Shown here: one piece after another, positions 4,697-28,372 of the stretch | How the letters are laid out: each line of letters opens with the position of its first letter | Numbering within the stretch: the first letter of the stretch is position 1 | NCBI GenBank assembly: GCA_029261995.1 | Contig: JAJDAF010000050.1 | Coordinates: 215,152-279,151, forward strand | From: Candidatus Zhuqueibacterota bacterium | GTDB taxonomy: Bacteria; Zhuqueibacterota; Zhuqueibacteria; Oceanimicrobiales; Oceanimicrobiaceae | Direction: 5' to 3' | Length of the DNA: 64,000 bases | Made by a program: the position numbers and the translations under genes | The notes under the pieces: model-generated | Seen by the model: the letters and a program-made list of their open reading frames with translations, nothing else | What the model was told of the DNA's origin: nothing | Database searches by the model: none

Positions 4697-6613
4697 ATGC
4701 AGCAAGATAATACAAGTTTTGGCGCCTGGGTGAAGGCATTTTCCCGCAGCGCACTGTGGGCTGGTGGAATTGTTGGCGGGCTGGAGGCTCTGATTGTCGT
4801 GTCTCGAATCCTCAGCAGCAATGCTGTCGAGCTGGCGCTGCTTCTGCAAATTGTGATTTTTGTAAGTTTCGCGATAGCGCTGTTTGCGGGGCTCTTGCTC
4901 ATCTTCAATCTCATCTTCCTGCCCGTGCTCTATTTGCCGCTGAAGATGGTTGTCTCTCGATTTCAGAAGATCGGGCCATCGCAATTGAGTTGGGTGCTCA
5001 ATTTTCTTACAGCGACCTTTTTCTGTTTCCTGTTCTGGGCACACTACAATTCCGGCCGCTCGCTGCTCTCTGGCAAATCACTGCTTTATTCGGGTTTGGC
5101 GTTTGTCGGTGCTTTGGTCCTGGCGGAAATCGCAGCCCGACTCATGCATGGAGCTTCTGACAAACTCAAGTTGTGGCGCAAAGGAAAGCCAAGACCTTTT
5201 GTGGTTGTCTGGCTTCTGGTTCTCGGCGTGGCGCTGTTCATGAACTCGAATGGCATGGCTGGCGTTAGAAGCGCCAAGCCGAATGTGCTCTTGCTTATCA
5301 TCGATACACTGCGGGCTGACCGGCTCGGTTGCTACGGCTATGACAAGCCCACCTCGCCATCCATCGACCGGGTGGCCAGTGAAAGCGTGCTTTTTGAACA
5401 AGCTTACGTGTCGTGGGCCTCGTCTTTGCCGTCGCATTCGTCCATCATGACCTCCATGCAGCCCTACCACCACGGCGCTTTTCCAAACGGGAAATCTCTG
5501 AACGCCAAGCTTTTGACGCTGCCGAAGATTCTGCACGAGTACGGGTATAAGAATGCGGGCTTTGTTTCGAATACACTGGTTGGCAATCAGTACAATTTTG
5601 AGCTTGGGTACGACACTTTCACCGACCTGACCAAGTTTGACTACCACGACACCAGTTGGCAAATGTGGGTACGCACACTCGATACGATTCGGTTGTTCGA
5701 CAAAATCACTGACCGTGATTTGTTCACCGATTTGGCGCTTTCGTGGATTGAAAAACATCGCCACCGACCCTTCTTTCTCTGGGGGCAATGGCTACAGCCG
5801 CATGCACCGTACGAGCCGCCGGCCAGGCATCTGGCCAAATTCGAAGAGAGTTATTCCGGAATCGCCGACGGTAGCCTCAAGCAGATTTTCGACATCCGGC
5901 AGGGTAACGTGACCTTGAGTGATTCCGACCAACAACACTATTCTGCGCTTTACGATGGCGAGGTTGCTTGGTCAGACGAGCAAATCGGCGCCGTGTATGA
6001 TAAGCTGACCGAACTCGAGTTGCTCGAGAACTCGATCGTCATTATTACTTCTGACCACGGCGAAAACATGTTGGAACACGGACTGGAATATGGCCACGCC
6101 GGGGTCAACGAATCGAGCGTGCGGATCCCTTTGCTCGTACGACTGCCGGGCGGTAAGCGGATGCAGTTGGCACACGTCGTGCAGAGCATCGACATCGCCC
6201 CGACTGTACTCGACCTTCTGGACATCCCCATGCCTGACCAGTTTCACGGCAGGAGCGTTGTCCCACTGGTCGAGGGGCAGAAGGTAGAGTGGCCGAACGA
6301 AGCGTTCAGTGTCGGGTTTTGGAAGAAGCGCAATTTTTTCGGTCTGCGCAATGGGGATTGGAAGCTGATTCTGGATGTGCGGCAGCAAAATCAGACCTGG
6401 GCGCTATACCATCTACCCACAGACCCGCACGAGCGAAAGAATCGTTACGAAACTGAGCCCGGGACGGCGACCAAGATGAAGCACGCCATGGAGATTTGGC
6501 TTGCGAACGAGTTTGAGAATCTCGATCTCGTATACAAGCCCGGCGGTTTTTTTGAAGAAGATTTTGATGAAAAGACAATTCAGCGGCTGCGAACGCTTGG
6601 ATACATCAAGTAA
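4697..6613 (+). CDS. membrane-anchored sulfatase-fold hydrolase/transferase
   Basis: About 5 N-terminal TM segments; NVLLLIIDTLRADRLGCYG, SSLPSHSSIMTS, PHAPYEPP, YDGEVAWSD, ITSDHGE, SIDIAPTVLD; ends RLRTLGYIK. Confidence 0.88.
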   Translation: MQQDNTSFGAWVKAFSRSALWAGGIVGGLEALIVVSRILSSNAVELALLLQIVIFVSFAIALFAGLLLIFNLIFLPVLYLPLKMVVSRFQKIGPSQLSWVLNFLTATFFCFLFWAHYNSGRSLLSGKSLLYSGLAFVGALVLAEIAARLMHGASDKLKLWRKGKPRPFVVVWLLVLGVALFMNSNGMAGVRSAKPNVLLLIIDTLRADRLGCYGYDKPTSPSIDRVASESVLFEQAYVSWASSLPSHSSIMTSMQPYHHGAFPNGKSLNAKLLTLPKILHEYGYKNAGFVSNTLVGNQYNFELGYDTFTDLTKFDYHDTSWQMWVRTLDTIRLFDKITDRDLFTDLALSWIEKHRHRPFFLWGQWLQPHAPYEPPARHLAKFEESYSGIADGSLKQIFDIRQGNVTLSDSDQQHYSALYDGEVAWSDEQIGAVYDKLTELELLENSIVIITSDHGENMLEHGLEYGHAGVNESSVRIPLLVRLPGGKRMQLAHVVQSIDIAPTVLDLLDIPMPDQFHGRSVVPLVEGQKVEWPNEAFSVGFWKKRNFFGLRNGDWKLILDVRQQNQTWALYHLPTDPHERKNRYETEPGTATKMKHAMEIWLANEFENLDLVYKPGGFFEEDFDEKTIQRLRTLGYIK

Positions 6614-8568: not shown

Positions 8569-10713
8569 ATGAAACGACCACTTTCATCTTTTCTGGGGAC
8601 AGCCACGCTGTTTGGCGTGTGCGCCGCGCTCAGCCTGTTCTTGTCAGAATGGATTCTTGGCTCCTTCTACGCTGCAATCAATTATCGCACATTTCTGTTC
8701 TACCTTGCCCTTTATCTGCCGGCCGGTGCGGTCGGCGGTGCAGTGCTTGGGCTGTTCTTGAAGCTCTTCTCAAGTGTGCTAAGCTCCCGCTGGATAGGCG
8801 TAAATCGTCCATCCTTCTTGCCGGCCGCGGTGATGTTTTCGTTTTTCTACATCTACGGTTTCTACTACATCAATGAAAAACTGACTGCCCGCGTTGGCGC
8901 ACTGGCTCCCTTGAGTCTCGCCGCGGATCTGGCGTTTCTGTTGCTGTCTTTCCTGGTATTTCGCCTGGTTGTGGCGCTACCTGAACGAAAAGGTAGCGCA
9001 GTCCTGGGCTTTCTTGAAGTCGGTTTCTTGCCGCTGATTCTTCTTGTTGGAGTCAATTTGCGCTTTTTTATCTGGCAGCCGCCGCACACCCAAATACCCG
9101 AATTGGTCTTTGGCACAATTGCGTTTGGCCTGGCGGGTCTGGCGGGCGCCGCTTTGGTCTGGCTTCATGCAAAGATCTTGACCGCTTCAGCATCCACGGG
9201 TGCGCGATTCGCCAGTGTTGCGGTAATGGCAGCAATTGTGTTTGCCATTCTTGTTTGGAGCGGCACGCCATCGACCGCCAGTTTCGACCGCACTGACGAT
9301 GAGTTTTTGGCGCAGGAAGCCGTGCAAAAGCCAAAGAACATCATCTGGATTGTCACCGACACGGCACGCCGTGACCATGTTTCGGTGTACGGCGGCCAGC
9401 GACAGACAACCCCGAGCCTTGAGCAATTTGCACAGGATGCCCTGGTTTTTGATAACGCCATCTCGGCGGCGCCCTGGACTCTGCCTTCGCACGCCTCAAT
9501 GTTCACGGGCATGTTTCCTTCGAAACACGGCGCACATTTTGTTGGTGACGCCATGTTCTCGACACCGCTGGTGCCGGGCAATCTGACGATCGGTGAAATC
9601 CTTTCGGCGCACGGCTACAACACCGCTGGCATCGCAGCGAACAATGCCGGATTGTCGCGACAGCTTGGATGCCATCAGGGATTTCAGTACTATTTTGATG
9701 GCCGCCCGCTTGTCTTCAGTATGTTCTGGGGCAAGGTGCTGCTCCAGCTTTCGGATGATTTTCGCATCGACGAGTTGTGGGTGAATGAGGTCTGCCTGGC
9801 AACAGAAATGGAACCCATCGTCAACAACTGGCTCGATGACAATGCTGATGACGGACCCTTCTTCCTGTTCGTGAATTTGATGGAGCCGCACGGCGGCATC
9901 GCCTTTGTGCCCGAGCCCTATGACTCCCTGTACGGCTTCGATCGCCAACGCCAGCAAGAGGTCTTCAAAGACTTCGATGCAGACAAAGTAGTGTTTTACC
10001 AGGCGGAGGTGACGGACGAGCACCGGGCATTTTGGAATGGCTACGTTCAGCGGAAGATTACTTTCATGGATGCCTATCTCGGCCGTCTGTTCGCCAGGTT
10101 AAAAGAGAAGGGACTCTATGATGACAGCATGGTCATCGTAAATTCCGACCACGGCGAGCTTTTTGGCGAACACAACTCATTCGGCCATAACACGGATTTG
10201 TACAATGAGTTGATTCGAGTGCCGTTGATGGTGAAGTACCCGCAGGCCGCCAAAACCGGCCGTGATGCAAAACTGGTGCAGACAGTTGACCTCATGCCGG
10301 AAATTCTGGCCCAGCTAGGCATCGAGATCCCCGCTAATGTTCAGGGCCAGCCGATTGACCAGGCGAACCATCCGGTGATTGCCGAGCTTTTTCAGCAACA
10401 ACACAATGCGCATGCCAAACGCAGTCCCGGCAGATACTACCGTGACCTGCGAGCGATCTTTGGCAACGTTGCGGGCGATTCACTGAAATACATCTGGGCT
10501 TCAAATGACAAGGCCGAACTCTTTGACATGGCAAACGACCCGGATGAGCTAACCGACGTTCTGCAGCAGAGGCCGCTGGCGGCTGACTCCCTGCGTGCGA
10601 GACTTGGCCGATGGGCCAGTAGCTTCAAACCGATGGAGACCAAGGGCCAGACTCGGAATATCGACAAGAAGGAATTGGAGAAGCGTTTGCGCTCACTGGG
10701 GTATATCAAGTAG
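8569..10713 (+). CDS. membrane-anchored sulfatase-fold hydrolase/transferase
   Basis: About 7 N-terminal TM segments; NIIWIVTDTARRDHVSVYG, APWTLPSHASMFTG, NLMEPHG, NSDHGELFGEH..FGH, TVDLMPEIL; ends RLRSLGYIK. Confidence 0.88.
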   Translation: MKRPLSSFLGTATLFGVCAALSLFLSEWILGSFYAAINYRTFLFYLALYLPAGAVGGAVLGLFLKLFSSVLSSRWIGVNRPSFLPAAVMFSFFYIYGFYYINEKLTARVGALAPLSLAADLAFLLLSFLVFRLVVALPERKGSAVLGFLEVGFLPLILLVGVNLRFFIWQPPHTQIPELVFGTIAFGLAGLAGAALVWLHAKILTASASTGARFASVAVMAAIVFAILVWSGTPSTASFDRTDDEFLAQEAVQKPKNIIWIVTDTARRDHVSVYGGQRQTTPSLEQFAQDALVFDNAISAAPWTLPSHASMFTGMFPSKHGAHFVGDAMFSTPLVPGNLTIGEILSAHGYNTAGIAANNAGLSRQLGCHQGFQYYFDGRPLVFSMFWGKVLLQLSDDFRIDELWVNEVCLATEMEPIVNNWLDDNADDGPFFLFVNLMEPHGGIAFVPEPYDSLYGFDRQRQQEVFKDFDADKVVFYQAEVTDEHRAFWNGYVQRKITFMDAYLGRLFARLKEKGLYDDSMVIVNSDHGELFGEHNSFGHNTDLYNELIRVPLMVKYPQAAKTGRDAKLVQTVDLMPEILAQLGIEIPANVQGQPIDQANHPVIAELFQQQHNAHAKRSPGRYYRDLRAIFGNVAGDSLKYIWASNDKAELFDMANDPDELTDVLQQRPLAADSLRARLGRWASSFKPMETKGQTRNIDKKELEKRLRSLGYIK

Positions 10714-10758
10714 GTCGTTTCTCACCGCCGTTGATTGCAGGTTTCGCCAGCAAAATTT

Positions 10759-13326
10759 ATGGACGAATCAGGTCTCACCACAAAACTCAAACACGCCATC
10801 CATCTCGGCTGTTGGCTAGGTTTGATCGGCGGCGTAATACGCGTCGTCATTCTTCTTTTGCAAAACAATTACTTCACGCAGGAAATAGCCACGTTCGGCG
10901 TAAACTATCTGCAAGTTTCGGTCAACCATTTTCTCCTACTCGGTTTGGCATTCGGAATTCTGTTAGGGATCTGCTGGAGGTTGTTTCGTAGCCTGGAGGG
11001 ATTCCTGCTTGCCGGATTGCTTGTTGCGTTACCAATTCTGCCCGTCGCCAATTTTCTAAACAGGAATATCTTCCCCGGCCGTTTTCACCCAATCAGCCTG
11101 GCAGGCAACGCCGCCATATTGGTGATTATGATTGCCCTGGCAATCTGGCTGTTTCTACGCTGGTTCAAGCCGGTCCGTTTTCTGCACCGACTCTACAGCA
11201 AATGGACATTTGCTGCGGCATTCGTGCTCGTTGGATGTGTAAATCTCTTCTACCTGCTGCAAATGCCTGAAGCCCGTTTGCAGGCTGCATCCCCTGAACC
11301 TGACGGTTTGGCCGGGTTGTTCAGAACGGTGTCCGCATCAACTTCTGGCGGAGTGAAGACCGGTTTTTCCATGTCTGACATAAAGAATCACTTGACGAAA
11401 ACAGCAGAAGACAGACTCCCGTTGCTGGATGAACGCATCGCTCGCAAGGATACCGCGGACATCATGGCCGAGGCCGACGCCTCAATTGCCCGGACCTTTG
11501 ATCTTCTAAACATCGCACACACATTTCCGGGTGAGATTGAGTGGCGCCAGAATCCGACCAAAGACCGGGAATGGCTGCTTGCCCTCAATCGGATGGACTG
11601 GATTTGGAGCGTGGCCGTCGCTTACCGAATGACGCAGGATTCCCAATATGCGCTCGCCTTTGACCGCATCATGCGCAGTTGGTTCGAGCAGAATCCGGTG
11701 CCGCGTTGGAAAAACGAGCGCGACAACGTCTGGCGCCTGATCGAATCCAGCGCCCGCATGACCGACAGTTGGATTGAGGCATTTTTTATTTTCTATAATT
11801 GCGATCAAGTCAGCGAGGAAGTCAAGTGGCGCATGCTGGCCTCGTTTCATGACCACGCGCAATTCCTGGCACACTTTCGTTCTCCCAGGAGGAATCATCT
11901 GCTGCAGGAGACGTATGGCTTGCTAGCGGTCGCTGCCGCATTTCCTGAGTTCAAAATGTCAGAAACCTGGATCGAAATCGCCAGACTACGGCTTGACCGG
12001 GCCATGCGCGAGGACGTTTATCCGGACGGCGGTTACACGGAGGGGTCGATTTACTACCACCGCTTCGCCATTCGCATTCTGCAGGAGATTACCGATTTCG
12101 CGGCGGCGTACGATGTTCGCCTTTCCGACTTCTTCTACCAGCAGCTCGAGAAGATGTACAGTTTTCTCATGCACACTTCCCGTCCCGACGGCGTCATGCC
12201 GCAGATGAATGACGGCTTCCACGCCAAGAATCTCCGCATCATGTTTGACCGGCCGGCCGAGTTTTTTTCTCGGCAGGACTTCGAGTACTTTGCGAGCGAC
12301 GGCTACTCGGGTGTGCGGCCTGAATCACCGTCGGTAGCATTTCCCTATTCTGGCATTTACGTCATGCGCAGCGGGTGGGCGCGCCAGGCGCGCTACATGA
12401 TTACAGATGCCGGGCCGTTCGGTTCATCGCACGGCCACGAAGACAAGCTGAGTTTTGAGCTGTTCGCGTTTGGCAGGCCATTTATCGTGGAAAGCGGCAC
12501 TTACACGTACGTGCGAAACAAGTGGCGGAAGTACTTCACCAGTTCATTCGCGCATAACACGATTGTTGTGGACGGCCGTAGCCAGATTCGCTTTCCGGAT
12601 CAGGAGCTTTGGGTGAATGCGCCGCCCGAAACCCTGGCCAATCAATGGATTTCGACGGACGCATTCGACTACCTTGAGGCGCACTACGATGGCGGCTACG
12701 GCAGCGTTAAGGAAGATGTACTCAGCGGAATTGTCCACACCCGGCGCTGGCTGTTTGTAAAACCGGACTACTGGATCATTTGGGACGTTGTCGAGGGAGA
12801 GGGGGAGCATAAGTTGGAACAACTATTTCACTTCTGGCATGAAGCGAACGTCGAGATTCTGGGCGAGAACGAGATTCGGGCCAGCTACTCGGGTGGACCA
12901 GCCATGTCCGTCCATGTTCTTGGCGAGAAACAGGGCCGCTTGACTGCCGTGAGGGGACAAGATAGTCCGGTGCAGGGCTGGGTTTCTTCGGAGTACGGCA
13001 AGAAAATGCCGGCATCCAGCGTTCGCGTCACCCGCCAGGGCGTTCTGCCGATTTCCTTTGTCACTATTCTGGCGCCATCGGAACTTGGACAACCGGATGA
13101 ACGTGTAGAATCTGTTCAAGTCACGGCCGGCGGGCAGTCTACTCCCCAAACAGAAGCAATTGCGGTTAAGCTCACATTTGAGAATCAAGTCGATCACATT
13201 TTGATTGCGCCAAATCTTCGAGAAGAAAAATCCTTCGGGGAGTTTGCAACCGGAGCAGAGTTGTTCGCGGTTCGGGAGAAAGGCGCAACTGCTACTCAAC
13301 TGTTCAGTCGGGAGGATGTGAAATGA
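10759..13326 (+). CDS. membrane-anchored heparinase II/III family (polysaccharide lyase-like) protein
   Basis: About 4-5 N-terminal TM helices, then LNRMDW, NHLLQETYGL, YPDGGYTEGSIYYH, HGHEDKLSFEL, HNTIVVDG, HTRRWLFV, typical of Hepar_II_III_N plus Hepar_II_III. ATG 10759 preferred over TTG 10735. Confidence 0.85.
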   Translation: MDESGLTTKLKHAIHLGCWLGLIGGVIRVVILLLQNNYFTQEIATFGVNYLQVSVNHFLLLGLAFGILLGICWRLFRSLEGFLLAGLLVALPILPVANFLNRNIFPGRFHPISLAGNAAILVIMIALAIWLFLRWFKPVRFLHRLYSKWTFAAAFVLVGCVNLFYLLQMPEARLQAASPEPDGLAGLFRTVSASTSGGVKTGFSMSDIKNHLTKTAEDRLPLLDERIARKDTADIMAEADASIARTFDLLNIAHTFPGEIEWRQNPTKDREWLLALNRMDWIWSVAVAYRMTQDSQYALAFDRIMRSWFEQNPVPRWKNERDNVWRLIESSARMTDSWIEAFFIFYNCDQVSEEVKWRMLASFHDHAQFLAHFRSPRRNHLLQETYGLLAVAAAFPEFKMSETWIEIARLRLDRAMREDVYPDGGYTEGSIYYHRFAIRILQEITDFAAAYDVRLSDFFYQQLEKMYSFLMHTSRPDGVMPQMNDGFHAKNLRIMFDRPAEFFSRQDFEYFASDGYSGVRPESPSVAFPYSGIYVMRSGWARQARYMITDAGPFGSSHGHEDKLSFELFAFGRPFIVESGTYTYVRNKWRKYFTSSFAHNTIVVDGRSQIRFPDQELWVNAPPETLANQWISTDAFDYLEAHYDGGYGSVKEDVLSGIVHTRRWLFVKPDYWIIWDVVEGEGEHKLEQLFHFWHEANVEILGENEIRASYSGGPAMSVHVLGEKQGRLTAVRGQDSPVQGWVSSEYGKKMPASSVRVTRQGVLPISFVTILAPSELGQPDERVESVQVTAGGQSTPQTEAIAVKLTFENQVDHILIAPNLREEKSFGEFATGAELFAVREKGATATQLFSREDVK

Positions 13327-13715
13327 GGAAGCAATCCAGTCTCTTCACAATTGTTGGTGCTTTTGTTCTTGTCTTTTCTTTCAGTTCAACCGTTCAGAGT
13401 CAAGTTGCTTTGTTGGAGGATGGCCAGAACGCTCTTGGCCTGGGCGGGAGTTTGTACTACGACTTTGACGGTGCGGGAGGGTTTTCCGGGACTTTTTCTG
13501 CGCTGCTGCTTGATCGTCTGGATTTCAGTGTGACGCAAGGCAGGTTATATCCAAATTCAGAAGATTTCGTCGATTCGGTGTTGTCCCAGAGTTTCGATGT
13601 CCTGATCGGGACGCAAAACGACGACCGCAAACTCGTCTTTCTTGAACTTGGTGCGTCTCGTACCGAGGGCGACTTCAGCGGCTCGGTCTCGGCGGGTATG
13701 GTAATATCTTTCTGA
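13323..13715 (+). CDS. small secreted hypothetical protein, possibly outer-membrane beta-strand protein
   Basis: ATGA overlap with the upstream stop; signal peptide; alternating hydrophobic beta-strand pattern; terminal Phe (GMVISF). Confidence 0.55.
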   Translation: MRKQSSLFTIVGAFVLVFSFSSTVQSQVALLEDGQNALGLGGSLYYDFDGAGGFSGTFSALLLDRLDFSVTQGRLYPNSEDFVDSVLSQSFDVLIGTQNDDRKLVFLELGASRTEGDFSGSVSAGMVISF

Positions 13716-13992
13716 GAACCTATAGGTGAATTTCCGCAGCGCGAAAACGGTATTGGTGCTGCCGAGACGTCCGTCCTGACGCTCTCATCAATACCCCATT
13801 GTTTCACAATGCAACACCAAAAGAAACTATCTGATCCCTTTTAAGACATCAAAGTTATGTGCCGATAACATTAACGCCGACGTGTCACTGTTTAGGTCTT
13901 AAAAAATAGCATGTTAACACGATATTGAGAATATTTGAAATGACTGTGAGTATCGGTATAGAATTTGCAAACGCAAGACGACTGTTTTCAGA

Positions 13993-16224
13993 ATGGCTCA
14001 ATTCAAAAAGGACGGTGAATCGTTGATCAATCCGGAGAGTAGAATTAGACTCAAGCTTGGAGTCATTGTACCCTTCTTCCTAGTCTTCCTGCTTATCCTC
14101 GGATCCCAGCCGGCGCATGCCTACATCGGACCTGGCGCAGGCTTTGCTTTTCTGACCTCGTTCCTGATGTTGTTTGCCAGTTTTTTCATGGCGTTTTTTA
14201 CCCTGCTGACCTGGCCCATGAGGGTGTTCGTTCGCTTCTTCAAACGCCGCAAAGCGTTCGTACAAGCCAAAACGGACCGCGTCGTCATTCTGGGCCTCGA
14301 CGGCCTTGAGCCGACGATTACGGAACGGTTGCTCAAGCAAGGCAAGTTGCCGAACCTGCTGAGGTTGAAGGAGCAGGGGTCCTATTCGCATTTGCAAACC
14401 ACCTATCCCGCGATTTCGCCAGTGGCATGGTCAGCGTTTTCGACAGGCGTGAATCCGGGCGGGCACAACATTTTTGATTTCCTGTCTCGACACAAGCAGA
14501 CCTACATGCCTGAGCTTTCCTCCTCCAAAGTCGGCACACCAAGCCGGAAGCTATCCTTTGGGCAATATGAGATTCCGCTGGGCAAACCGATTGTTCGTTT
14601 TCTGCGTCGCAGCAAGAGTTTCTGGAAAATCTTGGGCGACCACGGCATTTTTAGCCATGTCCTGCGGGTTCCGATTACATTTCCACCCGAGAAATTTAAC
14701 GGCGCCATGCTATCCGCCATGTGTGCGCCTGATTTGTGGGGAACTCAAGGCACCTTTTCTTTTTTCACCACCGACGATTCGGTGGACCCCATCAAGGAAG
14801 GCGGAGACACACAGATTGTGACACGCAACGGCGACCGCGTCGAAGGCAATATCAAGGGGCCTGAGAATTCCATTAAGAAGAATCACGGCCAGATGCTGCT
14901 GCCATTTGTGGCCAAAATTTTGGGTGAAGACGAAGCCGAGCTTATCATCGGCAAAGAGAGGATTCATCTCAAAAAGAAAAAATACACGGAGTGGATCGAG
15001 CTTAAATTCAAAGCAGGCTTGGGCATCAAAGTGCAGGGTATCGCGCGGTTTTACCTGCTCGACACCAAACCGCATTTCCGTCTTTACATGACGCCCATAA
15101 ATATCGATCCTGAGACGCCGGCGTTGCCGATTTCGTACCCCTATTTCTACTCGGTCTACCTGGCCAAGCTGCACGGCAAGTTTGCAACTCTCGGCCTGGC
15201 CGAAGACACCTGGTCGCTCAACGAAGGCATCCTGGACGAGCAGGCGTTTCTGGAGCAGGCTTATCTGATTCATGACGAACGCGAAAAGCAGTTTTTCCAC
15301 GCTCTTGATAAAACCAAGAAGGGCTTATGCGCGGTCGTTGTTGATGCGACGGACCGAATTCAGCACATGTTTTTCCGAACGCTGGAGGATGACCATCCGG
15401 CGAACAAGGGCAAAGAAACGGAGAAATACAAGAACGTCATCGAAGACATGTACATTAAGATGGACGGCCTGGTGGGCCGAACCATGGAAAAAGTCAACAA
15501 AGACGACCTCTTTATCGTGCTCTCCGACCACGGCTTCAAGTCTTTCAAACGCGGCATCAATCTGAACGTTTGGCTGAAGGAGAATGGCTATCTCACCCTC
15601 AAAGATGGGGTTGAAAAAACAGGCGAGTTTTTTCAGGGCGTAGACTGGTCGAAAACAAAGGCCTACGCTTTTGGGCTTGCGGGTATCTACCTGAATGTGA
15701 AGGGCCGGGAGAAGCACGGCACTGTCGAACCAGGTGATGAGTACCAGAAGCTCAAGAGAGAGCTGATTGAGAAGCTTTCCGGCTTGATAGACCCGAAAAA
15801 CGGTAATGTCGCGATCACCGAAATGTATGATGGTCAAAAAATTTACAGCGGTCCCTACGTTAATGACGGCCCAGATTTGATCAGTGGTTACAACATCGGT
15901 TACCGCATCTCGTGGAACGGAGCCACCGGCGTTATTGATGACACTCTTTTTGATGACAACACGAAAGCCTGGAGTGGCGACCACTGCATCGATCCCAAGC
16001 TGGTTCCGGGTGTGATTTTCAGCAATATGAAAATAGCCGCGGCAAAGCCGGGACTTGTCGACTTGGCGCCAACGGTTCTGGATATGTTTGGAGTCGCCAA
16101 GCCGGGTTACATGACGGGGGCAAACATCTTTGAGACGACGCGTAGTGGCGTAAACGGGCGTGCTCACAAGATCGGCAAAGTCGAAACGGTTGAGATTACG
16201 GAGGTCGCGAACCCCAATGAGTAG
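13993..16224 (+). CDS. alkaline phosphatase superfamily protein (type I phosphodiesterase/nucleotide pyrophosphatase-like), membrane anchored
   Basis: VVILGLDG, PAISPVAWSAFSTGVNPGGHNIFDF, DRIQHMFF, VLSDHGF, WSGDHC, VDLAPTVL. N-terminus: signal-like segment ..PAHA|YIGPGAG followed by a TM helix and a basic stretch. Confidence 0.85.
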   Translation: MAQFKKDGESLINPESRIRLKLGVIVPFFLVFLLILGSQPAHAYIGPGAGFAFLTSFLMLFASFFMAFFTLLTWPMRVFVRFFKRRKAFVQAKTDRVVILGLDGLEPTITERLLKQGKLPNLLRLKEQGSYSHLQTTYPAISPVAWSAFSTGVNPGGHNIFDFLSRHKQTYMPELSSSKVGTPSRKLSFGQYEIPLGKPIVRFLRRSKSFWKILGDHGIFSHVLRVPITFPPEKFNGAMLSAMCAPDLWGTQGTFSFFTTDDSVDPIKEGGDTQIVTRNGDRVEGNIKGPENSIKKNHGQMLLPFVAKILGEDEAELIIGKERIHLKKKKYTEWIELKFKAGLGIKVQGIARFYLLDTKPHFRLYMTPINIDPETPALPISYPYFYSVYLAKLHGKFATLGLAEDTWSLNEGILDEQAFLEQAYLIHDEREKQFFHALDKTKKGLCAVVVDATDRIQHMFFRTLEDDHPANKGKETEKYKNVIEDMYIKMDGLVGRTMEKVNKDDLFIVLSDHGFKSFKRGINLNVWLKENGYLTLKDGVEKTGEFFQGVDWSKTKAYAFGLAGIYLNVKGREKHGTVEPGDEYQKLKRELIEKLSGLIDPKNGNVAITEMYDGQKIYSGPYVNDGPDLISGYNIGYRISWNGATGVIDDTLFDDNTKAWSGDHCIDPKLVPGVIFSNMKIAAAKPGLVDLAPTVLDMFGVAKPGYMTGANIFETTRSGVNGRAHKIGKVETVEITEVANPNE

Positions 16225-18199
16225 AATGTTACAATCTATTGCAGGCACGAGTTGCCTGCTCGTAAGCCTGTGTTTGCTTGCTGCGAGTTTCACTGGTTGC
16301 GACAAGACACGTGCGGATGCGCCACAAAAAAAAGTCATTGTGATAGGATTTGATGGCGCTGATCCCGACCTTTTAAATCAGTACATGAAAGAGGGCAGGC
16401 TGCCCAATTTTTCAAGGTTTGCACAGACCGGTGACTATATGCCGCTCGGGACCAGTGTACCGCCGCAAAGTCCCGTGGCGTGGTCGAATTTTATCACCGG
16501 CATGAATCCGGGCGGGCACGGCATCTACGACTTCATTCACCGTGACCCTGAGTTGATGACGCCGATTTCTTCCACCTCGAAGACCGAAGGTTCATCGAAC
16601 ACGCTCAAGATCGGCAAATGGTTGATCCCACTATCCAGTGGCCATGTCAAGAATTTGAGGCAGGGCGAGGCTTTCTGGACCATGCTGGAAGATAGGGGCA
16701 TCTCTACCACGGTCATCAAAGTACCGGCGAATTTCCCGCCTATTGAATCGGATGGCAAGACCTTGAGCGGCATGGGCACGCCTGATTTGCTCGGCAGTTT
16801 CGGGACGTTTTCCTTCTACACCGACGATCCGCCAGCCAACCGGGACGATATCTCCGGGGGCACGATTTATCCGGTAACTCTGGTCAACAACAGCTTTGAG
16901 TCAAATCTTGTGGGGCCCAAAAACGCTTTACTCGAAGGCGAGCCGGACGCAACCATTCCGTTCAAAGTCTACCGGGACGCTGAGAATGCGACTGCCAGAA
17001 TTGATGTGCAGGGCAAGCAGATTCTGCTGCAGGAGAAAGAGTGGAGCGACTGGCTTCAGGTCAACTTTGACCTCCTGCCCGCCGGTTTGACGGGTGTGAG
17101 CGGCATCTGCCGTTTCTACCTGAAAGAAGTTCGTCCCAAGGTGAAATTGTACGTCACGCCGATCAATATTGACCCATCGGCGCCTGCGCTGCCGGTCTCA
17201 ACACCGGAAGACTACGTTGAGGACCTGCACAAGTGTTGTGGCAATTTTTATACGCAGGGCATGCCCGAAGACACCAAAGCGCTCTCCTGGGGTGTGTTTG
17301 ACCACGATGATTTTCACAGCCAAAGTAAGAATGTTCTCGAAGAGCGGCTGCGCATGTTCAATCATGTCTACGACAACTATGAAGACGGCTTGCTCTTCTT
17401 CTACTTCTCCAGCACGGATCTCAACGCCCACATGTTTTACAATATGATCGATCCCGAGCATCCGGGCTACAAGCCCGAGTTGGCGGCGAAATATCATGAC
17501 GTGATTGCATCGGTCTATGAAGGCGTGGATGCAGTAGTCGGGCGTGTGCTTGACACAATCGACGATGAAACGACCGTGATGGTAATGTCAGACCATGGTT
17601 TTGCTCCTTTCCGAAGGGCCGTGCATCTCAATACCTGGTTGCTGCAGGAGGGCTATGTCTCTCTGCTTGACGAAACAAAGCAGGAGGAGTCAGACTATTT
17701 TTTGAACGTAGACTGGGGCAAGAGTCAGGTTTATGGCCTCGGTTTTAACGGGCTTTACGTCAATTTGCTTGGCCGTGAGAAATACGGCATCGTCAAATAC
17801 AGCGAGAAAGGCAAGCTCATTGATGAGATCGCCGACAAGTTGCTAGATCTGCGCGACCCGAAGAATGGCGAGAAAATTGTCGATAGAGTCTACCGCGCTA
17901 GCGAGATCTATTCCGGTGTCAACCTGCGCGGGGCCCCCGATCTTGTGATTGGTTATAAACGGGGTTACCGTGCATCCGACAAGACGGTGTTAGGCAGCTT
18001 TCCGAGGGAATGGATCGCTGACAACATGGATTCCTGGAGCGGTGACCACTGCATGGCGGCTGAGTTGGTTCCAGGAATCATTCTGTCAAACAAGAAGATC
18101 GTAGCCGAGAATCCGAAGCTGTATGATCTTGCCCCGACGATTTTATCAGAATTTGGGGTAGGTAAGAACGCAGATATGGTAGGGGAGTCCATCTTTTGA
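16217..18199 (+). CDS. alkaline phosphatase superfamily protein (NPP-like), probable lipoprotein; paralog of 13993-16224
   Basis: ATG 16217 overlaps the upstream stop by 8 nt; lipobox-like LAASFTG|C; VIVIGFDG, PPQSPVAWSNFITGMNPGGHGIYDF, MSDHGF, WSGDHC, YDLAPTIL. Confidence 0.85.
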   Translation: MSRMLQSIAGTSCLLVSLCLLAASFTGCDKTRADAPQKKVIVIGFDGADPDLLNQYMKEGRLPNFSRFAQTGDYMPLGTSVPPQSPVAWSNFITGMNPGGHGIYDFIHRDPELMTPISSTSKTEGSSNTLKIGKWLIPLSSGHVKNLRQGEAFWTMLEDRGISTTVIKVPANFPPIESDGKTLSGMGTPDLLGSFGTFSFYTDDPPANRDDISGGTIYPVTLVNNSFESNLVGPKNALLEGEPDATIPFKVYRDAENATARIDVQGKQILLQEKEWSDWLQVNFDLLPAGLTGVSGICRFYLKEVRPKVKLYVTPINIDPSAPALPVSTPEDYVEDLHKCCGNFYTQGMPEDTKALSWGVFDHDDFHSQSKNVLEERLRMFNHVYDNYEDGLLFFYFSSTDLNAHMFYNMIDPEHPGYKPELAAKYHDVIASVYEGVDAVVGRVLDTIDDETTVMVMSDHGFAPFRRAVHLNTWLLQEGYVSLLDETKQEESDYFLNVDWGKSQVYGLGFNGLYVNLLGREKYGIVKYSEKGKLIDEIADKLLDLRDPKNGEKIVDRVYRASEIYSGVNLRGAPDLVIGYKRGYRASDKTVLGSFPREWIADNMDSWSGDHCMAAELVPGIILSNKKIVAENPKLYDLAPTILSEFGVGKNADMVGESIF

Positions 18200-18320
18200 G
18201 GCGCTATTCGCAGGTCAGGGCATCTCAGGGTGGCTGAAGAAGAACATTGAGCTTGTGGAATTATTCATCGAGCTAGTGCAAATAGAACAAACCAGGGTTA
18301 GTCGATAAAGGAGTAAATTG

Positions 18321-18506
18321 ATGGCAAAGGTAAAACTTGAGAACGAACTATTTGACCGCGTCAAGAAATTTGCGGAGGTGGCTGGCTATTCGTCGGCTGA
18401 GGAGTTCATCGCTCACATTCTGGAGAAGGAGCTTTCATCGGTAGACGAAACAGATAGCGACGATGAGATCAAAAAGCGTTTGCAGGGTCTCGGTTATTTG
18501 TCCTAG
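18321..18506 (+). CDS. 61-aa hypothetical protein, CopG/ribbon-helix-helix-like N-terminus plus RLxxLGY C-terminal motif
   Basis: AAGGAG RBS at 18308-18313. Sequence MAKVKLENELFDRVKKFAEVAGYSSAEEFIAHILEKEL...DDEIKKRLQGLGYLS. Confidence 0.8.
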   Translation: MAKVKLENELFDRVKKFAEVAGYSSAEEFIAHILEKELSSVDETDSDDEIKKRLQGLGYLS

Positions 18507-18541
18507 TTTCTAAGAACCTAAGGAATGAAAAGCATCAGAAT

Positions 18542-19363
18542 ATGGATCTCATAAACGCAGCACTAAATACAGTTTTTGGGCTAGTCTTTTTGCCCTTCAG
18601 AAACGCAAGCCCGGTTTGGCCCATGCTTGTGATCTCCGTGGTCACGGGTGTGGCGATGCTGGTCATTTTCAAGGCGACCTCCGACCAGAACGCGATCAAA
18701 AGGGCGAAGAATTTGGTCAAAGGCCATTTCCTTGCGATCCGCCTGTACAAAGACGATATCGGGTTGATGGTAGACACGATGAAGAACATCATCGTGAGCA
18801 ATCTGCTTTATATGAAACAGTCGCTGCGTCCCATGCTGTTTTTGCTGGTTCCGGTTGGAATCATTCTGATTCAGCTTGGCGTGCGGTACGAATTCCGGCC
18901 TCTGAAGGTTGGCGAGGCCGTTGTCGTGTCTCTTCGTGTTGAAGATGCGGCTGTCGAGCTTGCGGATGTCCGCCTTGATTTGCCGGAAGGCTTGGAGTTG
19001 AATATCCCCCCTGTACGCGTGGAGCAACTTCGGGAAATCAACTGGCGGCTCAAAGCAACCCAATCGGGTGTTTTCAACCTGGCGTTCAAACACGGCGACC
19101 ATGTGGTTGACAAGCGCCTGCAGGTTGTCGATGCCCTCGCGCCTGTGACAGCTCAGGTAGCAAAACATGATATCGGTGTGACCATCATGAACCCGGCCGA
19201 ATCCAGCCTTGGAGAGGCATCGTTTGCCTCACTGGTGTCCATCTCATACCCGGTGCGGGATTTCGAACTCTGGGGTTTCAGCCTGCACTGGCTGGTGGCT
19301 TTTTTTGTCATCAGCTTGATTGCCGCTTTCGGATTTAAGGGCATGTTGGGCGTTGAAGTTTAG
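18542..19363 (+). CDS. DUF106/EMC3/TMCO1-like (Oxa1 superfamily-like) membrane protein with soluble insertion
   Basis: TM1 (MLVISVVTGVAMLVIFK)-ATSDQ, helical linker, MKQSLRPMLFLLVP-TM2, about 130-aa beta-rich insert, TM3 (LHWLVAFFVISLIAAFGFKGMLGV). Pattern recalled from archaeal DUF106; not searched. Confidence 0.6.
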   Translation: MDLINAALNTVFGLVFLPFRNASPVWPMLVISVVTGVAMLVIFKATSDQNAIKRAKNLVKGHFLAIRLYKDDIGLMVDTMKNIIVSNLLYMKQSLRPMLFLLVPVGIILIQLGVRYEFRPLKVGEAVVVSLRVEDAAVELADVRLDLPEGLELNIPPVRVEQLREINWRLKATQSGVFNLAFKHGDHVVDKRLQVVDALAPVTAQVAKHDIGVTIMNPAESSLGEASFASLVSISYPVRDFELWGFSLHWLVAFFVISLIAAFGFKGMLGVEV

Positions 19364-19411
19364 ATTATTAATGCGTAGTTGGTTCAAACTGCATCTCTGA
19401 GAAGGAGTAAA

Positions 19412-20284
19412 ATGAGCTACAAGCTACTATCGTTCAAGACGAGCGAAGAACACGACATCGAGCAATGGAACGACCGCAGTTTGGAAGGAGAACTCAAAAG
19501 TTTCGAAGACCGGACGCTTGTCCGCATTTTCGACAAGTATCTGGGTGGCTCTAAGGCAAGGATTTTGGAAGGAGGCTGTGGATTCGGTGCCTGGTGCGAA
19601 TGGTTTCAGAATCGCGGCCACGACATCGTTGGCATTGAGTATGACCAGAATATCGTCGCTCGCGCCAGAGAATTCAAGCCGGATGTAGCTGTCGAGTTGG
19701 GGGATATCACCGATCTCAATTATCCCGACAATTCGTTTGACGCATACATTTCGTTGGGCGTCATTGAGCATTTTGAGCATGGCCCCGAAAAGTCCCTGGC
19801 AGAGGCTCACCGAATTCTTAAACCAGGGGGACTGGCGTTTGTCACGACTCCGTGGCTAACTGTCCTGCGTCGTACTTTGTCCCACCCGATACGCAGTCTT
19901 TATTTTCTGAAAAGAAAGCTCAAAGGACAGCCGAACTACTTTTGGGAGTATCGCTTCACCAAGATCGAGTTGCGGAACTACCTGGAGCAGGCTGGTTTCG
20001 AGATCATCTGCGAAGACGTTGACGATTACGAATCTGAAGCGACCAACAGGCATATTGGCTTATGGGCAGACTGGTTTTTTCTGAGAGAGCCGGACGGAGA
20101 GATTTGGGAACTCAACCGGAAAGGCAAATTTGTATTGAAGCTTTTGAAAACGCTGGCGCCGGCCACCTGGTTTTGTTCAGGGCTGCATCTGGTAGCACGG
20201 GCCAAGAAGGATGACGTGGCTGAAACTGTCTCCTCATCCGACAATCATAAAGAGGTTAAAAAGATGCAAGCTACAATTGCATAA
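19412..20284 (+). CDS. class I SAM-dependent methyltransferase
   Basis: AAGGAG RBS; ILEGGCGFG (motif I), GIEYD, GDITDL, DAYISLGVIEH, RILKPGG. Confidence 0.9.
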   Translation: MSYKLLSFKTSEEHDIEQWNDRSLEGELKSFEDRTLVRIFDKYLGGSKARILEGGCGFGAWCEWFQNRGHDIVGIEYDQNIVARAREFKPDVAVELGDITDLNYPDNSFDAYISLGVIEHFEHGPEKSLAEAHRILKPGGLAFVTTPWLTVLRRTLSHPIRSLYFLKRKLKGQPNYFWEYRFTKIELRNYLEQAGFEIICEDVDDYESEATNRHIGLWADWFFLREPDGEIWELNRKGKFVLKLLKTLAPATWFCSGLHLVARAKKDDVAETVSSSDNHKEVKKMQATIA

Positions 20285-20348
20285 CTAGTGTAACTGTTCT
20301 ATCTTAACTCAGTTTACCGAATTCAGTAACGATAAAGGAAATTGTTTT

Positions 20349-21512
20349 ATGAATCTAATTGCGCCACACGGTGGCCAACTTGTCAATCGAGTTTTAAAAG
20401 GTGATGAACGTGATGCTGCCCTGGAAAGAAGCAAGGGCTTACGGAAACTGCAACTGGGCCCTACTTCGGTTTCTGATCTCGAGTTGATTTCTGTCGGCGC
20501 GTGTAGTCCGCTGACAGGCTTTATGAAGAAGGCTGATTACGAGAGTGTCGTCGATAATATCAGACTTGCAAATGGCATGGTCTGGTCGATTCCGATTACC
20601 TTGGCCGTCTCCAGGACCGTGGCAGACGAGTTGAAGGAGGGCGACGAGCTTCTGCTGACCAATGACGCCGACTACCCGCTTGCGATTATGACCCTGGAGG
20701 AAAAATACACTTACGACAAGAATCGAGAGGCCGAGCAAGTCTATCGCACTACTGACGAAGCTCATCCGGGAGTGGCAAGAGCGCTTCGGCAAGGCGAGAT
20801 TCTATTGGGTGGGGATATCCAGCTAATCAACCATTTGCCTGATTTACCGTTTCCGGATTTCCGCCATGAGCCTGCCGCAACTCGCAAAGCCTTCGCGGAG
20901 CGGGGCTGGACAACTATCGTGGCATTTCAAACCCGGAACCCGATTCATCGGGCGCATGAGTATCTGACCAAAGTCGCTCTTGAAGGCGTCGATGGCCTTC
21001 TGATTCACCCCCTCGTCGGCGAGACGAAATCGGATGACGTGCCGGCGGCAGTGCGCATGGAATGCTATAAAATGATGATGAAAAACTACTACAATCCGAA
21101 GCGAGTTATGCTGAGTGTGTTCCCGGCTGCCATGCGTTATGCCGGCCCGCGTGAAGCCATTTTTCACGCCATGCTGCGAAAAAACTATGGCTGTAGCCAT
21201 CTCATCGTTGGCCGGGACCATGCGGGTGTTGGTGACTACTACGGAACTTACGATGCCCAAGAGATTTTCGACCAGTTCACGGCTGATGAACTAGGCATCG
21301 TCCCGATGAAATTCGAGCACTCATTCTACTGCAAATTAACGAAACAGATGGCGACGGAAAAAACAAGCCCGAGTACGGGTCCGGAACATCGTGTTTTTCT
21401 GAGCGGTACGAAGGTGCGCGAAATGCTGACGCGCGGCGAGATGCCGCCGGAACAGTTTACGCGGCCCGAAATAGCACAGGTGCTGATCGATAGTTACAAG
21501 AAGAACGCGTAA
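20349..21512 (+). CDS. sat: sulfate adenylyltransferase (ATP sulfurylase)
   Basis: PHGGQLVNR, SPLTGFM, WSIPITL, FQTRNPIHRAHEYL, MRYAGPREA, VGRDHAGVG, LSGTKVREML. Confidence 0.97.
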   Translation: MNLIAPHGGQLVNRVLKGDERDAALERSKGLRKLQLGPTSVSDLELISVGACSPLTGFMKKADYESVVDNIRLANGMVWSIPITLAVSRTVADELKEGDELLLTNDADYPLAIMTLEEKYTYDKNREAEQVYRTTDEAHPGVARALRQGEILLGGDIQLINHLPDLPFPDFRHEPAATRKAFAERGWTTIVAFQTRNPIHRAHEYLTKVALEGVDGLLIHPLVGETKSDDVPAAVRMECYKMMMKNYYNPKRVMLSVFPAAMRYAGPREAIFHAMLRKNYGCSHLIVGRDHAGVGDYYGTYDAQEIFDQFTADELGIVPMKFEHSFYCKLTKQMATEKTSPSTGPEHRVFLSGTKVREMLTRGEMPPEQFTRPEIAQVLIDSYKKNA

Positions 21513-21571
21513 CAGAAAACAGAAAAGAAAAATGAATTCAAATTCTACCCAGAACAGGAGGTAATAGTTAG

Positions 21572-22153
21572 ATGTCCGAATCATTGAAAGCAGCGACGAT
21601 CTGGTTTACAGGACTTCCATCTTCCGGCAAGTCAACCTTGGCGGTTTTGTTGGAAAACGAACTAAAAAAACGCGGGCGCACGGTTGAAGTTCTCGACGGT
21701 GACGTTGTAAGAACGAATCTGAGCAAAGGCCTGGGCTTCAGCAAGGAAGATCGCGACACCAATATCAAACGAATTGGCTTTGTCTGCCACTTGCTGTCAC
21801 GTAATGGCACCTTTGCCGTATCCGCAGCCATCTCACCCTACAAAGAAATTCGTGACGATGTCCGCGACATGATTGGCGATTTCGTCGAGATCTTTGTCGA
21901 TTGCCCGCTCGACGAGTGCATAAAGCGCGACGTCAAAGGTCTCTACAAGAAAGCCATAGCTGGCGAAATTCAGGGCTTTACCGGCATCTCTGACCCTTAT
22001 GAGCCACCAACCGATGCTGAACTCATCGTCAAGACCGGTGAAGAAGAGCCGCAGGAAAGCCTACGGAAGATTCTCGCGAGGCTCGAGGAGTTGGGCTATC
22101 TGGCAAAGAATGGCGTGGCCGAGACTTCTGAAGCCGAAATGGCATCCGCCTGA
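21572..22153 (+). CDS. cysC: adenylyl-sulfate kinase
   Basis: AGGAGGT RBS; [13 protein letters not shown]-loop, [41 protein letters not shown]. Confidence 0.97.
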
Positions 22154-28182: not shown

Positions 28183-28372
28183 TGAAGGGCAAAATGGAGC
28201 TGTGACCTCAGGGGCGGATAGCGCGATGAGCTAGCAGAATGAGACTGCGTTGGGAGGAAAACAACGACCAGTTCACCACCAGGGACTTCAAATGAAAGCA
28301 ACGGACGTAAACATCTTGGGTCAGAGAGCAGACGGAATTGCTGGAGAATCAAGCATCAGGAGAAAGATTAAC

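Follow-up and report, generated by a model that had tools for sequence, protein, structure and literature searches.

A conserved four-gene module of paired NPP-like enzymes and a predicted DUF106/Ylp1-type membrane protein in several bacterial phyla: a possible part in envelope sulfation

What are four compact genes, annotated at present just as "alkaline phosphatase family" or "hypothetical", doing together beside the genes for activated sulfate? The genes, here called g1 to g4, lie co-oriented on the + strand at 13993-19363 of a 64,000-nt stretch from a Candidatus Zhuqueibacterota bacterium (GenBank assembly GCA_029261995.1, contig JAJDAF010000050.1, positions 215,152 to 279,151), the whole of which is referred to here as the window. 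An initial annotation had proposed a membrane module preceded by a gap of ~280 nt and placed just 5' of a methyltransferase and sat-cysC. All of its open reading frames (ORFs) are present where it had put them, the gap measures 277 nt (13716-13992), and the methyltransferase and sat-cysC do follow, at 19379-22153 (Table 1). It had also taken the four proteins for one complex that handles an activated sulfate or phosphate donor. Are these genes a unit at all? What is each protein? Is sulfation what they serve? The first question has a plain answer: the four genes are a conserved unit, grouped far above chance. The reading preferred here for the rest, which we hold to be about evenly poised, is that g1-g4 form one stable inner-membrane complex serving sulfation dependent on 3'-phosphoadenosine 5'-phosphosulfate (PAPS), or a closely coupled ester transfer, on envelope glycans or lipids.

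Does the grouping hold in other genomes, a point on which the initial annotation had staked its proposal? It does. Loci were collected from the contexts of g4 and g3 homologues and from a scan of species-representative genomes, with genes mapped by tblastn; all homologues are metagenome-derived sequences. The order g1-g2-g3-g4 is kept in ~45 loci, wherever the contig reaches far enough, and these cover at least five phylum-level lineages (KSB1/Calditrichota-like, Aminicenantes, Planctomycetota/Phycisphaerae, Gemmatimonadota and Eisenbacteria), the closest relatives of the window locus carrying the labels KSB1 or Calditrichaceae. The flanks of the module differ completely from lineage to lineage. 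In a tree of the two paralogs, g1 and g2 form reciprocally monophyletic clades that each contain all lineages and branch broadly in parallel; the duplication is thus an old one, and its two products have stayed together since. In the window, g1 and g2 overlap by 8 nt (ATGAGTAG) when g2 is started at ATG 16217, which orthologue N-termini and the lipoprotein signal favour over the GTG at 16160 from which the ORF is listed. The gaps that follow are 121 nt (g2-g3), 35 nt (g3-g4) and 15 nt (g4-methyltransferase), and the ATG of g3 is preceded by GGAG, 7 nt upstream.

What kind of protein is g4? A profile built from 27 homologues of g4 finds the archaeal DUF106 protein MJ0480/Ylp1 (PDB 5c8j) with E=3.2e-9 over residues 7-118, and PF01956 gives weak matches in seven of the 27 (best E 1.4e-4). 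The profile match supports the Oxa1-like identity with three transmembrane (TM) helices that the initial annotation had suspected: within the Oxa1 superfamily, g4 is predicted to belong to the DUF106/Ylp1/EMC3 branch, as a bacterial member. The AlphaFold2 model (mean predicted local distance difference test score, pLDDT, 89.4) has helices at residues 25-46, 49-68, 73-116 and 250-266, in the order TM1, coiled coil, TM2, an immunoglobulin (Ig)-like beta-sandwich (residues ~120-248, bases 18899-19285) and TM3. In a Foldseek search with this model, the insert matched nothing beyond generic Ig-like folds and the TM core drew no match. The loop between TM1 and TM2 is rich in Lys and Arg. Because of this charge distribution, and because exported domains are found fused before TM1, the N-terminus and the Ig-like domain are placed in the periplasm and the coiled coil in the cytoplasm, which gives an inferred N-out/C-in three-TM core with a predicted periplasmic Ig-like domain. 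The core of g4 is that of MJ0480/Ylp1, EMC3, Get1 and TMCO1: its N-out TM1 ends in ...TSDQ and is followed by a basic coiled coil in the cytoplasm and by TM2 and TM3. It differs from the MJ0480/EMC3 group in being bacterial, in carrying ~130 aa of Ig-like domain between TM2 and TM3, and in being always encoded with, or fused to, enzymes of the alkaline-phosphatase superfamily; for g4, an insertase role is a prediction only. DUF106 has been described as archaeal and eukaryotic (PMC5868721).

The enzymes in question are g1 and g2, which are 40% identical across 634 aa. Both match PF01663 (g1 4e-29, 102.7 bits; g2 4e-39, 135.7 bits; gathering cut-off 23), and in an alignment of 66 orthologues the catalytic set D103, S142, D454, H458, D512, H513, D663 and H664 is kept in both paralogs, with the nucleophile S142 replaced by Thr in two sequences. 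The two-metal ligands and Ser/Thr nucleophile of the NPP (nucleotide pyrophosphatase/phosphodiesterase) branch are present in each. Since the complete two-metal, Ser-nucleophile NPP-type site is kept, both proteins should, judging from their residues, cleave or transfer phosphoryl or sulfuryl esters, and their substrate is probably membrane-bound or near the membrane. A Foldseek search with the AlphaFold2 model of g1 (mean pLDDT 89.7) gave Xanthomonas NPP, ENPP1 and PhnA as best matches (probability 1.0, E ~1e-8 to 1e-9) and also found PafA and SPAP, at just 10-12% identity; the target-normalised TM-score for the single-domain targets Xanthomonas NPP and PhnA is 0.56-0.62. At the level of sequence, phmmer of g1 and g2 against PDB sequences gave no match at E<0.01. 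With Xanthomonas NPP (2gsn/7n1s), ENPP1-7 and PhnA, the pair shares the core fold, six metal ligands and the Ser/Thr nucleophile; unlike them, g1 and g2 are ~250 residues longer, by a beta-rich insert that distinguishes their family (2749 representatives at E<=1e-30), and come as a pair of predicted cytoplasmic and periplasmic paralogs.

How is this pair divided between the two sides of the membrane? The N-terminus of g1 has the same order in every phylum: a signal-like segment ending in AxA, the motif YIGPGAG, a TM helix, then WPxR and a basic patch. YIGPGAG is present in every g1 orthologue of all phyla with at most one conservative substitution, and basic residues cluster after the TM helix in all orthologues. 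For g1, the positive-inside rule predicts a cytoplasmic catalytic domain. The same placement is favoured because a PAPS-type sulfotransferase domain, necessarily cytoplasmic, is fused ahead of the same anchor in one family member (P0201). The window g2 starts with a lipobox-like signal (...SFTGC), and its orthologues carry lipoprotein (window, Planctomycetota), twin-arginine (Aminicenantes) or Sec (Gemmatimonadota) signals; g2 is therefore exported. The earlier remark that the paralogs are targeted differently is borne out, with g1 a membrane-anchored protein whose domain is predicted to face the cytoplasm and g2 an exported lipoprotein.

Are the parts ever joined in one chain? The search for fusions covered the best 150 of the 2749 representatives of the g1 family. 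In P0201 a complete g1 is preceded by a Sulfotransfer_1 domain (E=4.8e-9). P0214 is a g1 that continues at its C-terminus into g3 (47% identity over 59 aa, E=1e-19). In P0245, P0307 and P0259 an exported NPP domain is followed by a g4-like module, joined directly before TM1. P0245 aligns with the g4 profile in hhalign at a probability of 96% (E=1.5e-9). The direct hhalign comparisons of the g4 profile with P0307 and P0259 were each non-significant; their C-termini are homologous to that of P0245 (4e-38 and 8e-11), and their homology to g4 is transitive, through P0245. A search seeded on the P0245 C-terminus found 41 clusters of this g2+g4 type, one of them labelled Geminicoccaceae. Strict gene order, parallel trees and natural fusions, all of them drawn from sequence comparison, together give strong if indirect support to the predicted membrane complex that the initial annotation had pictured. 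A further protein of the family, P0295 (953 aa), joins a UbiA-family prenyltransferase domain (E=1.4e-40) and a long NPP-like domain in one chain, which hints that some family members may act on polyprenyl-linked substrates.

The g2+g4 fusions also define a three-gene variant of the module. In all three fusion loci inspected the order is the same: a miniprotein with the YIGPGAG motif, the g2+g4 fusion, and a sulfatase-fold protein that ends in the LGY tail discussed below. The miniprotein (84-99 aa) consists only of signal-AxA-Y(I/V)GPGAG-TM-WPxR-basic tail, that is, of the g1 anchor standing alone; the YIGPGAG element is therefore a module of its own that accompanies g4. The protein 3' of the fusion (~819 aa) has a sulfatase fold, an N-terminal signal anchor and the tail. 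One of these loci, L048, adds genes for Sulfotransfer_3, Metallophos and MprF-like LPG_synthase_TM proteins.

What links the module to sulfate? The sulfation genes around it are of several kinds and came there independently. In KSB1-like loci sat-cysC lies 3' of the module, and in one Eisenbacteria locus 5' of it. An orthologous sulfotransferase of ~190 aa flanks the module in four distinct loci (L006, L008/L009, L020 and L027); these proteins are 42-53% identical among themselves and 44-47% identical to the sulfotransferase domain of P0201. Three to four tandem paralogs of the arylsulfotransferase ASST stand 5' of the module in L025 and L029, L025 being a second module copy in the same metagenome-assembled genome as L017, and the Sulfotransfer_3 gene of L048 lies beside the three-gene variant. 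In sum, sulfation genes came to stand beside the module at least five separate times, and one became fused to it. A related observation concerns Sat itself. In L001 (11832-14465), and also in L002/L017, L019, L021 and L023, ATP sulfurylase and a shorter PF01663 domain form one protein (877 aa), with a separate 448-aa PF01663 gene after cysC in L001/L002/L017, L019, L021 and L023. Both arrangements again tie PAPS synthesis physically to NPP-fold proteins.

The remaining protein, g3, is the smallest. It is built from ~40 N-terminal residues of ribbon-helix-helix (RHH)-like sequence, an acidic linker and a tail of the form ...RLxGLGY(L/I)x-COOH; in the window it ends ...KKRLQGLGYLS (tail at 18471-18503), so that the free-standing LGY tail of the initial annotation is indeed the C-terminus of this 61-aa protein. 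At least 402 homologues exist, and G22, Y23, E28, L54, G56, L57 and Y59 are invariant, a strong conservation for a small protein. The window protein has no Pfam or NCBIfam match. PF01402 (RHH_1) matches six of 20 g3 members (best 2.6e-5), the window g3 not among them, and the RHH domains of NikR and MazE6 are weakly similar (E 0.3-0.5). The sequence follows the pattern K-x-K-x-E strand, helix, G-Y-S-S turn, helix.

The tail is not confined to g3. Across the fetched loci it ends 29 sulfatase-fold proteins, a count that, like the other tail counts, includes copies of one sequence recovered twice. In five distinct loci (L001:14731-15354, L004:16546-17157, L019, L021 and L023) CysC carries an acidic linker and a terminal (K/R)KRL(S/A)DLGY(I/L/V)-COOH, a tail as in g3. 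The window CysC has only an internal RLEELGYL, which may simply be part of the kinase fold. In three KSB1-like loci a DUF2061-like membrane protein of ~100 aa that ends ...EERLKELGYL lies directly 5' of g1; in the window this slot is filled by an unrelated ORF (13323-13715) for a secreted protein of 130 aa. On which side of the membrane is the tail used? The window sulfatase-fold proteins have a strongly basic loop before the last TM helix and acidic sequence after it, so that under the positive-inside rule their catalytic domains are predicted to be periplasmic, and the tail seems to be used on both sides. For the same reason, and because the ~819-aa partner of the fusions is also predicted to be periplasmic, the idea that all LGY tails are cytoplasmic was rejected. 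A generic membrane-targeting amphipathic helix was rejected as the main explanation of the tail, since L-G-Y is invariant and always zero to two residues from the C-terminus. A match of the g3 tail profile to yeast ribosomal protein uL13 (PDB 4v91 chain O, ...AKQLAALGY, E=0.05) is weak and was set aside as probably a coincidence.

How might these parts work together? In the complex preferred here, g4 would be the membrane core, first inserting the procoat-like g1 anchor and then retaining it. The g1 catalytic domain would remain in the cytoplasm, and g2 would sit on the periplasmic side against the N-terminus and Ig-like domain of g4. As a putative dimerising RHH adaptor, g3 could dock its LGY tail on the tail-less cytoplasmic domain of g1. 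If it does, the same sites on g1 and g2 could also serve tailed CysC in the cytoplasm and tailed sulfatase-fold enzymes in the periplasm. The docking idea comes from the fact that each version of the module pairs an LGY-tailed partner with a long NPP domain in one compartment, the predicted pairs being g3 with g1 in the cytoplasm and, in the periplasm, the 819-aa sulfatase-fold protein with a g2-type domain; having no tail themselves, g1 and g2 are candidate partners of a widespread tail. Many glycan loci make PAPS yet encode no classical sulfotransferase, and to our knowledge their sulfation of exported polysaccharides and lipids is not understood. The module offers a concrete set of candidate proteins for such sulfation. 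If the proposal is true, several bacterial phyla carry, besides YidC, an Oxa1-superfamily protein of archaeal/eukaryotic type that is built permanently into an enzyme complex, which would bear on the evolution of the Oxa1 family and on further uses of its groove.

Several observations weigh against this proposal. The link to an activated-sulfate pathway, as first suggested, stands in so far as sat-cysC, the ~190-aa sulfotransferase and ASST recur as independent neighbours; it is not universal, the Planctomycetota and Aminicenantes loci having no sulfation gene within 10 kb of the module. L006 lies also among Pho-type genes, together with PhoD and a phosphate porin, a setting that fits phosphate scavenging. 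Two loci are incomplete, L015 with g1-g3-g4 and no g2, L024 with g2-g3-g4 and no g1; either the module is naturally reduced there or the assemblies have gaps. Since the three-gene variant lacks a cytoplasmic NPP domain, the two-sided arrangement is not obligatory. Fusions are metagenome gene calls that may include gene-calling errors, and the g1+g3 fusion is a single cluster, possibly an artefact of assembly or gene calling. Taken alone, the window g4 has no Pfam or NCBIfam match and falls below the PF01956 gathering score.

Could the complex do more than hold its enzymes in place? One extension, a long shot, is that the module is a relay passing activated sulfate (or a phosphoester group) from one side of the membrane to the other, which would make it the first periplasmic sulfation route in bacteria. 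CysC would dock through its LGY tail on cytoplasmic g1 and hand over PAPS; g1 would load the group on a membrane-bound carrier, a lipid or a conserved tyrosine. Instead of inserting proteins, the hydrophilic groove of g4 and the YIGPGAG helix would move the loaded carrier through the bilayer, and periplasmic g2 would hand the group to LGY-tailed sulfatase-fold transferases that decorate the exported polysaccharide.

What is the RHH domain of g3 for, if not to dimerise an adaptor? The protein may be mainly a DNA-binding autoregulator of the PutA or type II antitoxin kind, its dimer repressing the operon and the membrane complex capturing the LGY tail as a switch. This role, compatible with the complex proposed above, is a tentative option, to be taken seriously and still doubted. 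An RHH domain with a partner-binding tail is the standard antitoxin layout, and the RHH_1 matches and the weak similarity to NikR and MazE6 agree with it. So does the DNA 5' of g1, where an imperfect inverted repeat, a possible operator on sequence grounds, precedes a promoter-like site. The arm words TTTTAAGAC and GTCTTAAAA are both found again 5' of g1 in close KSB1-like relatives; in the window they enclose the word TGCCGATAA. The second hexamer of the promoter-like site sits within GGTATAGAATTTGC, and the surrounding motif GGTATAG(A/T)ATTTGC is common to four of the six close relatives that were compared, while the remaining two come near it; it is found in L012, L013 and L015, and one-base variants occur in L014 and L018. 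Against a mainly regulatory role, the g1+g3 fusion ties the RHH domain to a membrane enzyme, g3 is ~45-50% identical between phyla yet the upstream DNA has no common motif, and the predicted DNA-facing strand, K-x-K-x-E/D, is acidic at its third position.

Is g4 perhaps just a passing helper? It could be merely a transient insertase or assembly factor for the N-out hairpin anchor of g1, with g1 and g2 working as independent phosphodiesterases or phosphatases (in phosphate scavenging or in turnover of nucleotides or lipid head groups) and the link to sulfation incidental. Oxa1-family proteins insert procoat-like and N-out anchors, and the anchor of g1 has exactly this layout. The nearest folds of g1 are hydrolases (NPP, PhnA, PafA and SPAP), L006 adjoins PhoD and a phosphate-selective porin, and many loci are without a sulfation neighbour. 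YidC, however, is expected in the carrier bacteria. Neither a covalent g4-g2 fusion in 41 clusters nor a conserved periplasmic Ig-like domain is what a transient chaperone would lead one to expect, and an incidental link sits badly with sulfation genes recruited beside the module at least five times, plus one fusion. This account is unlikely, though not far-fetched.

The third explanation keeps the tie to sulfation and changes the task. Like CysQ and the Golgi PAP phosphatase, g1 and g2 might hydrolyse PAP (3'-phosphoadenosine 5'-phosphate), PAPS or APS (adenosine 5'-phosphosulfate) on both sides of the membrane and so relieve product inhibition of sulfotransferases. NPP-fold enzymes cleave nucleotide esters, and both the sulfotransferase+g1 fusion P0201 and the Sat-fused PF01663 domain with the PF01663 gene after cysC (L001/L002/L017, L019, L021, L023) are arrangements that would suit such a role. 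It leaves the membrane anchor, the Oxa1-like partner and the RHH-tail protein unexplained, however; the large beta-rich insert of g1 and g2 is absent from nucleotide NPPs, and we know of no source of periplasmic PAP in bacteria. By-product clearance is accordingly improbable as the main function. That the four genes are no functional unit, only neighbours by chance or local rearrangement, is scarcely credible given that ~45 loci of at least five phyla keep the strict order while their flanks change, that the genes overlap or lie close together and that natural fusions join the parts, and no support for it was found, the only variation being the one paralog missing in each of L015 and L024.

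Has anything like the proposed complex been seen before? In LtaS, EptA/MCR-1 and OpgB, an extracytoplasmic domain of alkaline-phosphatase fold, which has a Ser/Thr nucleophile, receives its lipid-linked donor from a membrane domain. By analogy this division of labour may apply to the module, in which g4 and the YIGPGAG helix would give four to five TM helices beside g2. The fold of those enzymes is PF00884, in contrast to the PF01663 of g1 and g2, and their single N-terminal bundle of five TM helices is unrelated to Oxa1; they lack both a cytoplasmic paralog and an RHH adaptor. The module proteins do not belong to the LtaS/EptA type: g1 has a hairpin anchor, g2 a lipoprotein signal, both are PF01663, and neither combines five TM helices with PF00884. 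A second parallel is the pair Agl30 and Agl31 of Halobacterium salinarum, sulfatase-fold proteins of the alkaline-phosphatase superfamily that act as sulfotransferases and are required for N-glycan sulfation (PMC11980604). One is membrane-bound and one soluble, and they are encoded in a glycan locus. Because of this precedent, the LGY-tailed sulfatase-fold neighbours of the module are plausible sulfotransferases. Agl30 and Agl31 differ from g1 and g2 in their sulfatase fold (PF00884) and have no known pairing with DUF106 or an RHH-tail protein; they are closer to the three LGY-tailed sulfatase-fold genes of the window than to g1 or g2.

The third parallel concerns the anchor. M13 procoat and Pf3 coat are the classical substrates of YidC, and the g1 anchor and the miniprotein share their layout: signal peptide, AxA, short exposed segment, TM helix, basic tail. 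Unlike procoat, the g1-type anchor keeps YIGPGAG and WPxR nearly unchanged across phyla and is always encoded with g4; this constancy and constant pairing suggest a permanent subunit, not a client protein. Literature searches on DUF106/Ylp1, alkaline-phosphatase-superfamily sulfotransferases and the LGY motif found no description of a bacterial DUF106 member, of the four-gene module or of the LGY tail. The parts belong to known superfamilies; the module itself looks undescribed.

Table 1. Features of the window, and of related loci where a locus handle precedes the positions
Feature	Positions	Strand	Description
g1	13993-16224	+	743 aa; membrane-anchored long NPP-like enzyme, alkaline-phosphatase superfamily
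YIGPGAG motif	14122-14142	+	g1 residues 44-50; after signal-peptidase-like AHA site, before TM helix and WPxR basic patch
g2	16217-18199	+	660 aa; exported lipoprotein paralog of g1, predicted periplasmic
g3	18321-18506	+	61 aa; ATG start; RHH-like domain, acidic linker, LGY tail
g4	18542-19363	+	273 aa; predicted DUF106/Ylp1-type Oxa1-superfamily protein, three TM helices and Ig-like domain
Methyltransferase	19379-20284	+	S-adenosylmethionine-dependent; directly 3' of g4
sat	20349-21512	+	makes PAPS with cysC
cysC	21572-22153	+	makes PAPS with sat
Inverted repeat, imperfect	13839-13904	+	TTTTAAGACATCAA ... TTTAGGTCTTAAAA; 14-nt arms, 86% complementary; 5' of promoter-like site
Promoter-like site	13935-13964	+	TTGAAA-18-TAGAAT; 10/12 matches, consensus match only
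Three multi-TM sulfatase-fold proteins	696-2690, 4697-6613, 8569-10713	+	each ends RL(R)xLGY(I/L)K
Three-gene variant loci	L047:7666-13218, L048:7624-13068, L049:1990-9406		one member labelled Geminicoccaceae
DUF2061-like LGY-tailed protein	L019:5241-5549, L021:5178-5483, L028:4901-5245		directly 5' of g1

The wider window is a large glycan locus. Upstream of the module are the three sulfatase-fold genes, which are module-associated and outside the conserved core, along with genes for a GHL15/Golvesin protein and a heparinase II/III-like membrane protein. Directly after g4 comes the methyltransferase, a lineage-specific companion of the module that has the same position in KSB1-like loci. On the far side of sat-cysC follow genes for glycosyltransferases GT4 and GT2, DUF2304, a FemAB-like protein, a DUF3473 deacetylase and PMT_2, and then giant adhesins. 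Both of the adhesins scanned (28250-35728 and 43638-48074) have FlgD_ig domains, and the first has a match to a type IX secretion system (T9SS) sorting domain that is below threshold. Near the Planctomycetota and Aminicenantes modules, a search for a conserved neighbour common to the loci turned up only HtrA, DnaA, LacI, nitroreductase and M1 peptidase genes, which were dropped as clues to function. The heparinase II/III-like protein (10735-13326) has ~5 N-terminal TM helices and adjoins the sulfatase-fold genes, a neighbourhood that recalls the locus for the sulfated iduronic-acid N-glycan of Halobacterium salinarum, with its C5-epimerase Agl32 and Agl30/31. By this analogy, the heparinase-like and sulfatase-fold genes suggest that the locus may make a glycosaminoglycan-like sulfated exopolysaccharide.

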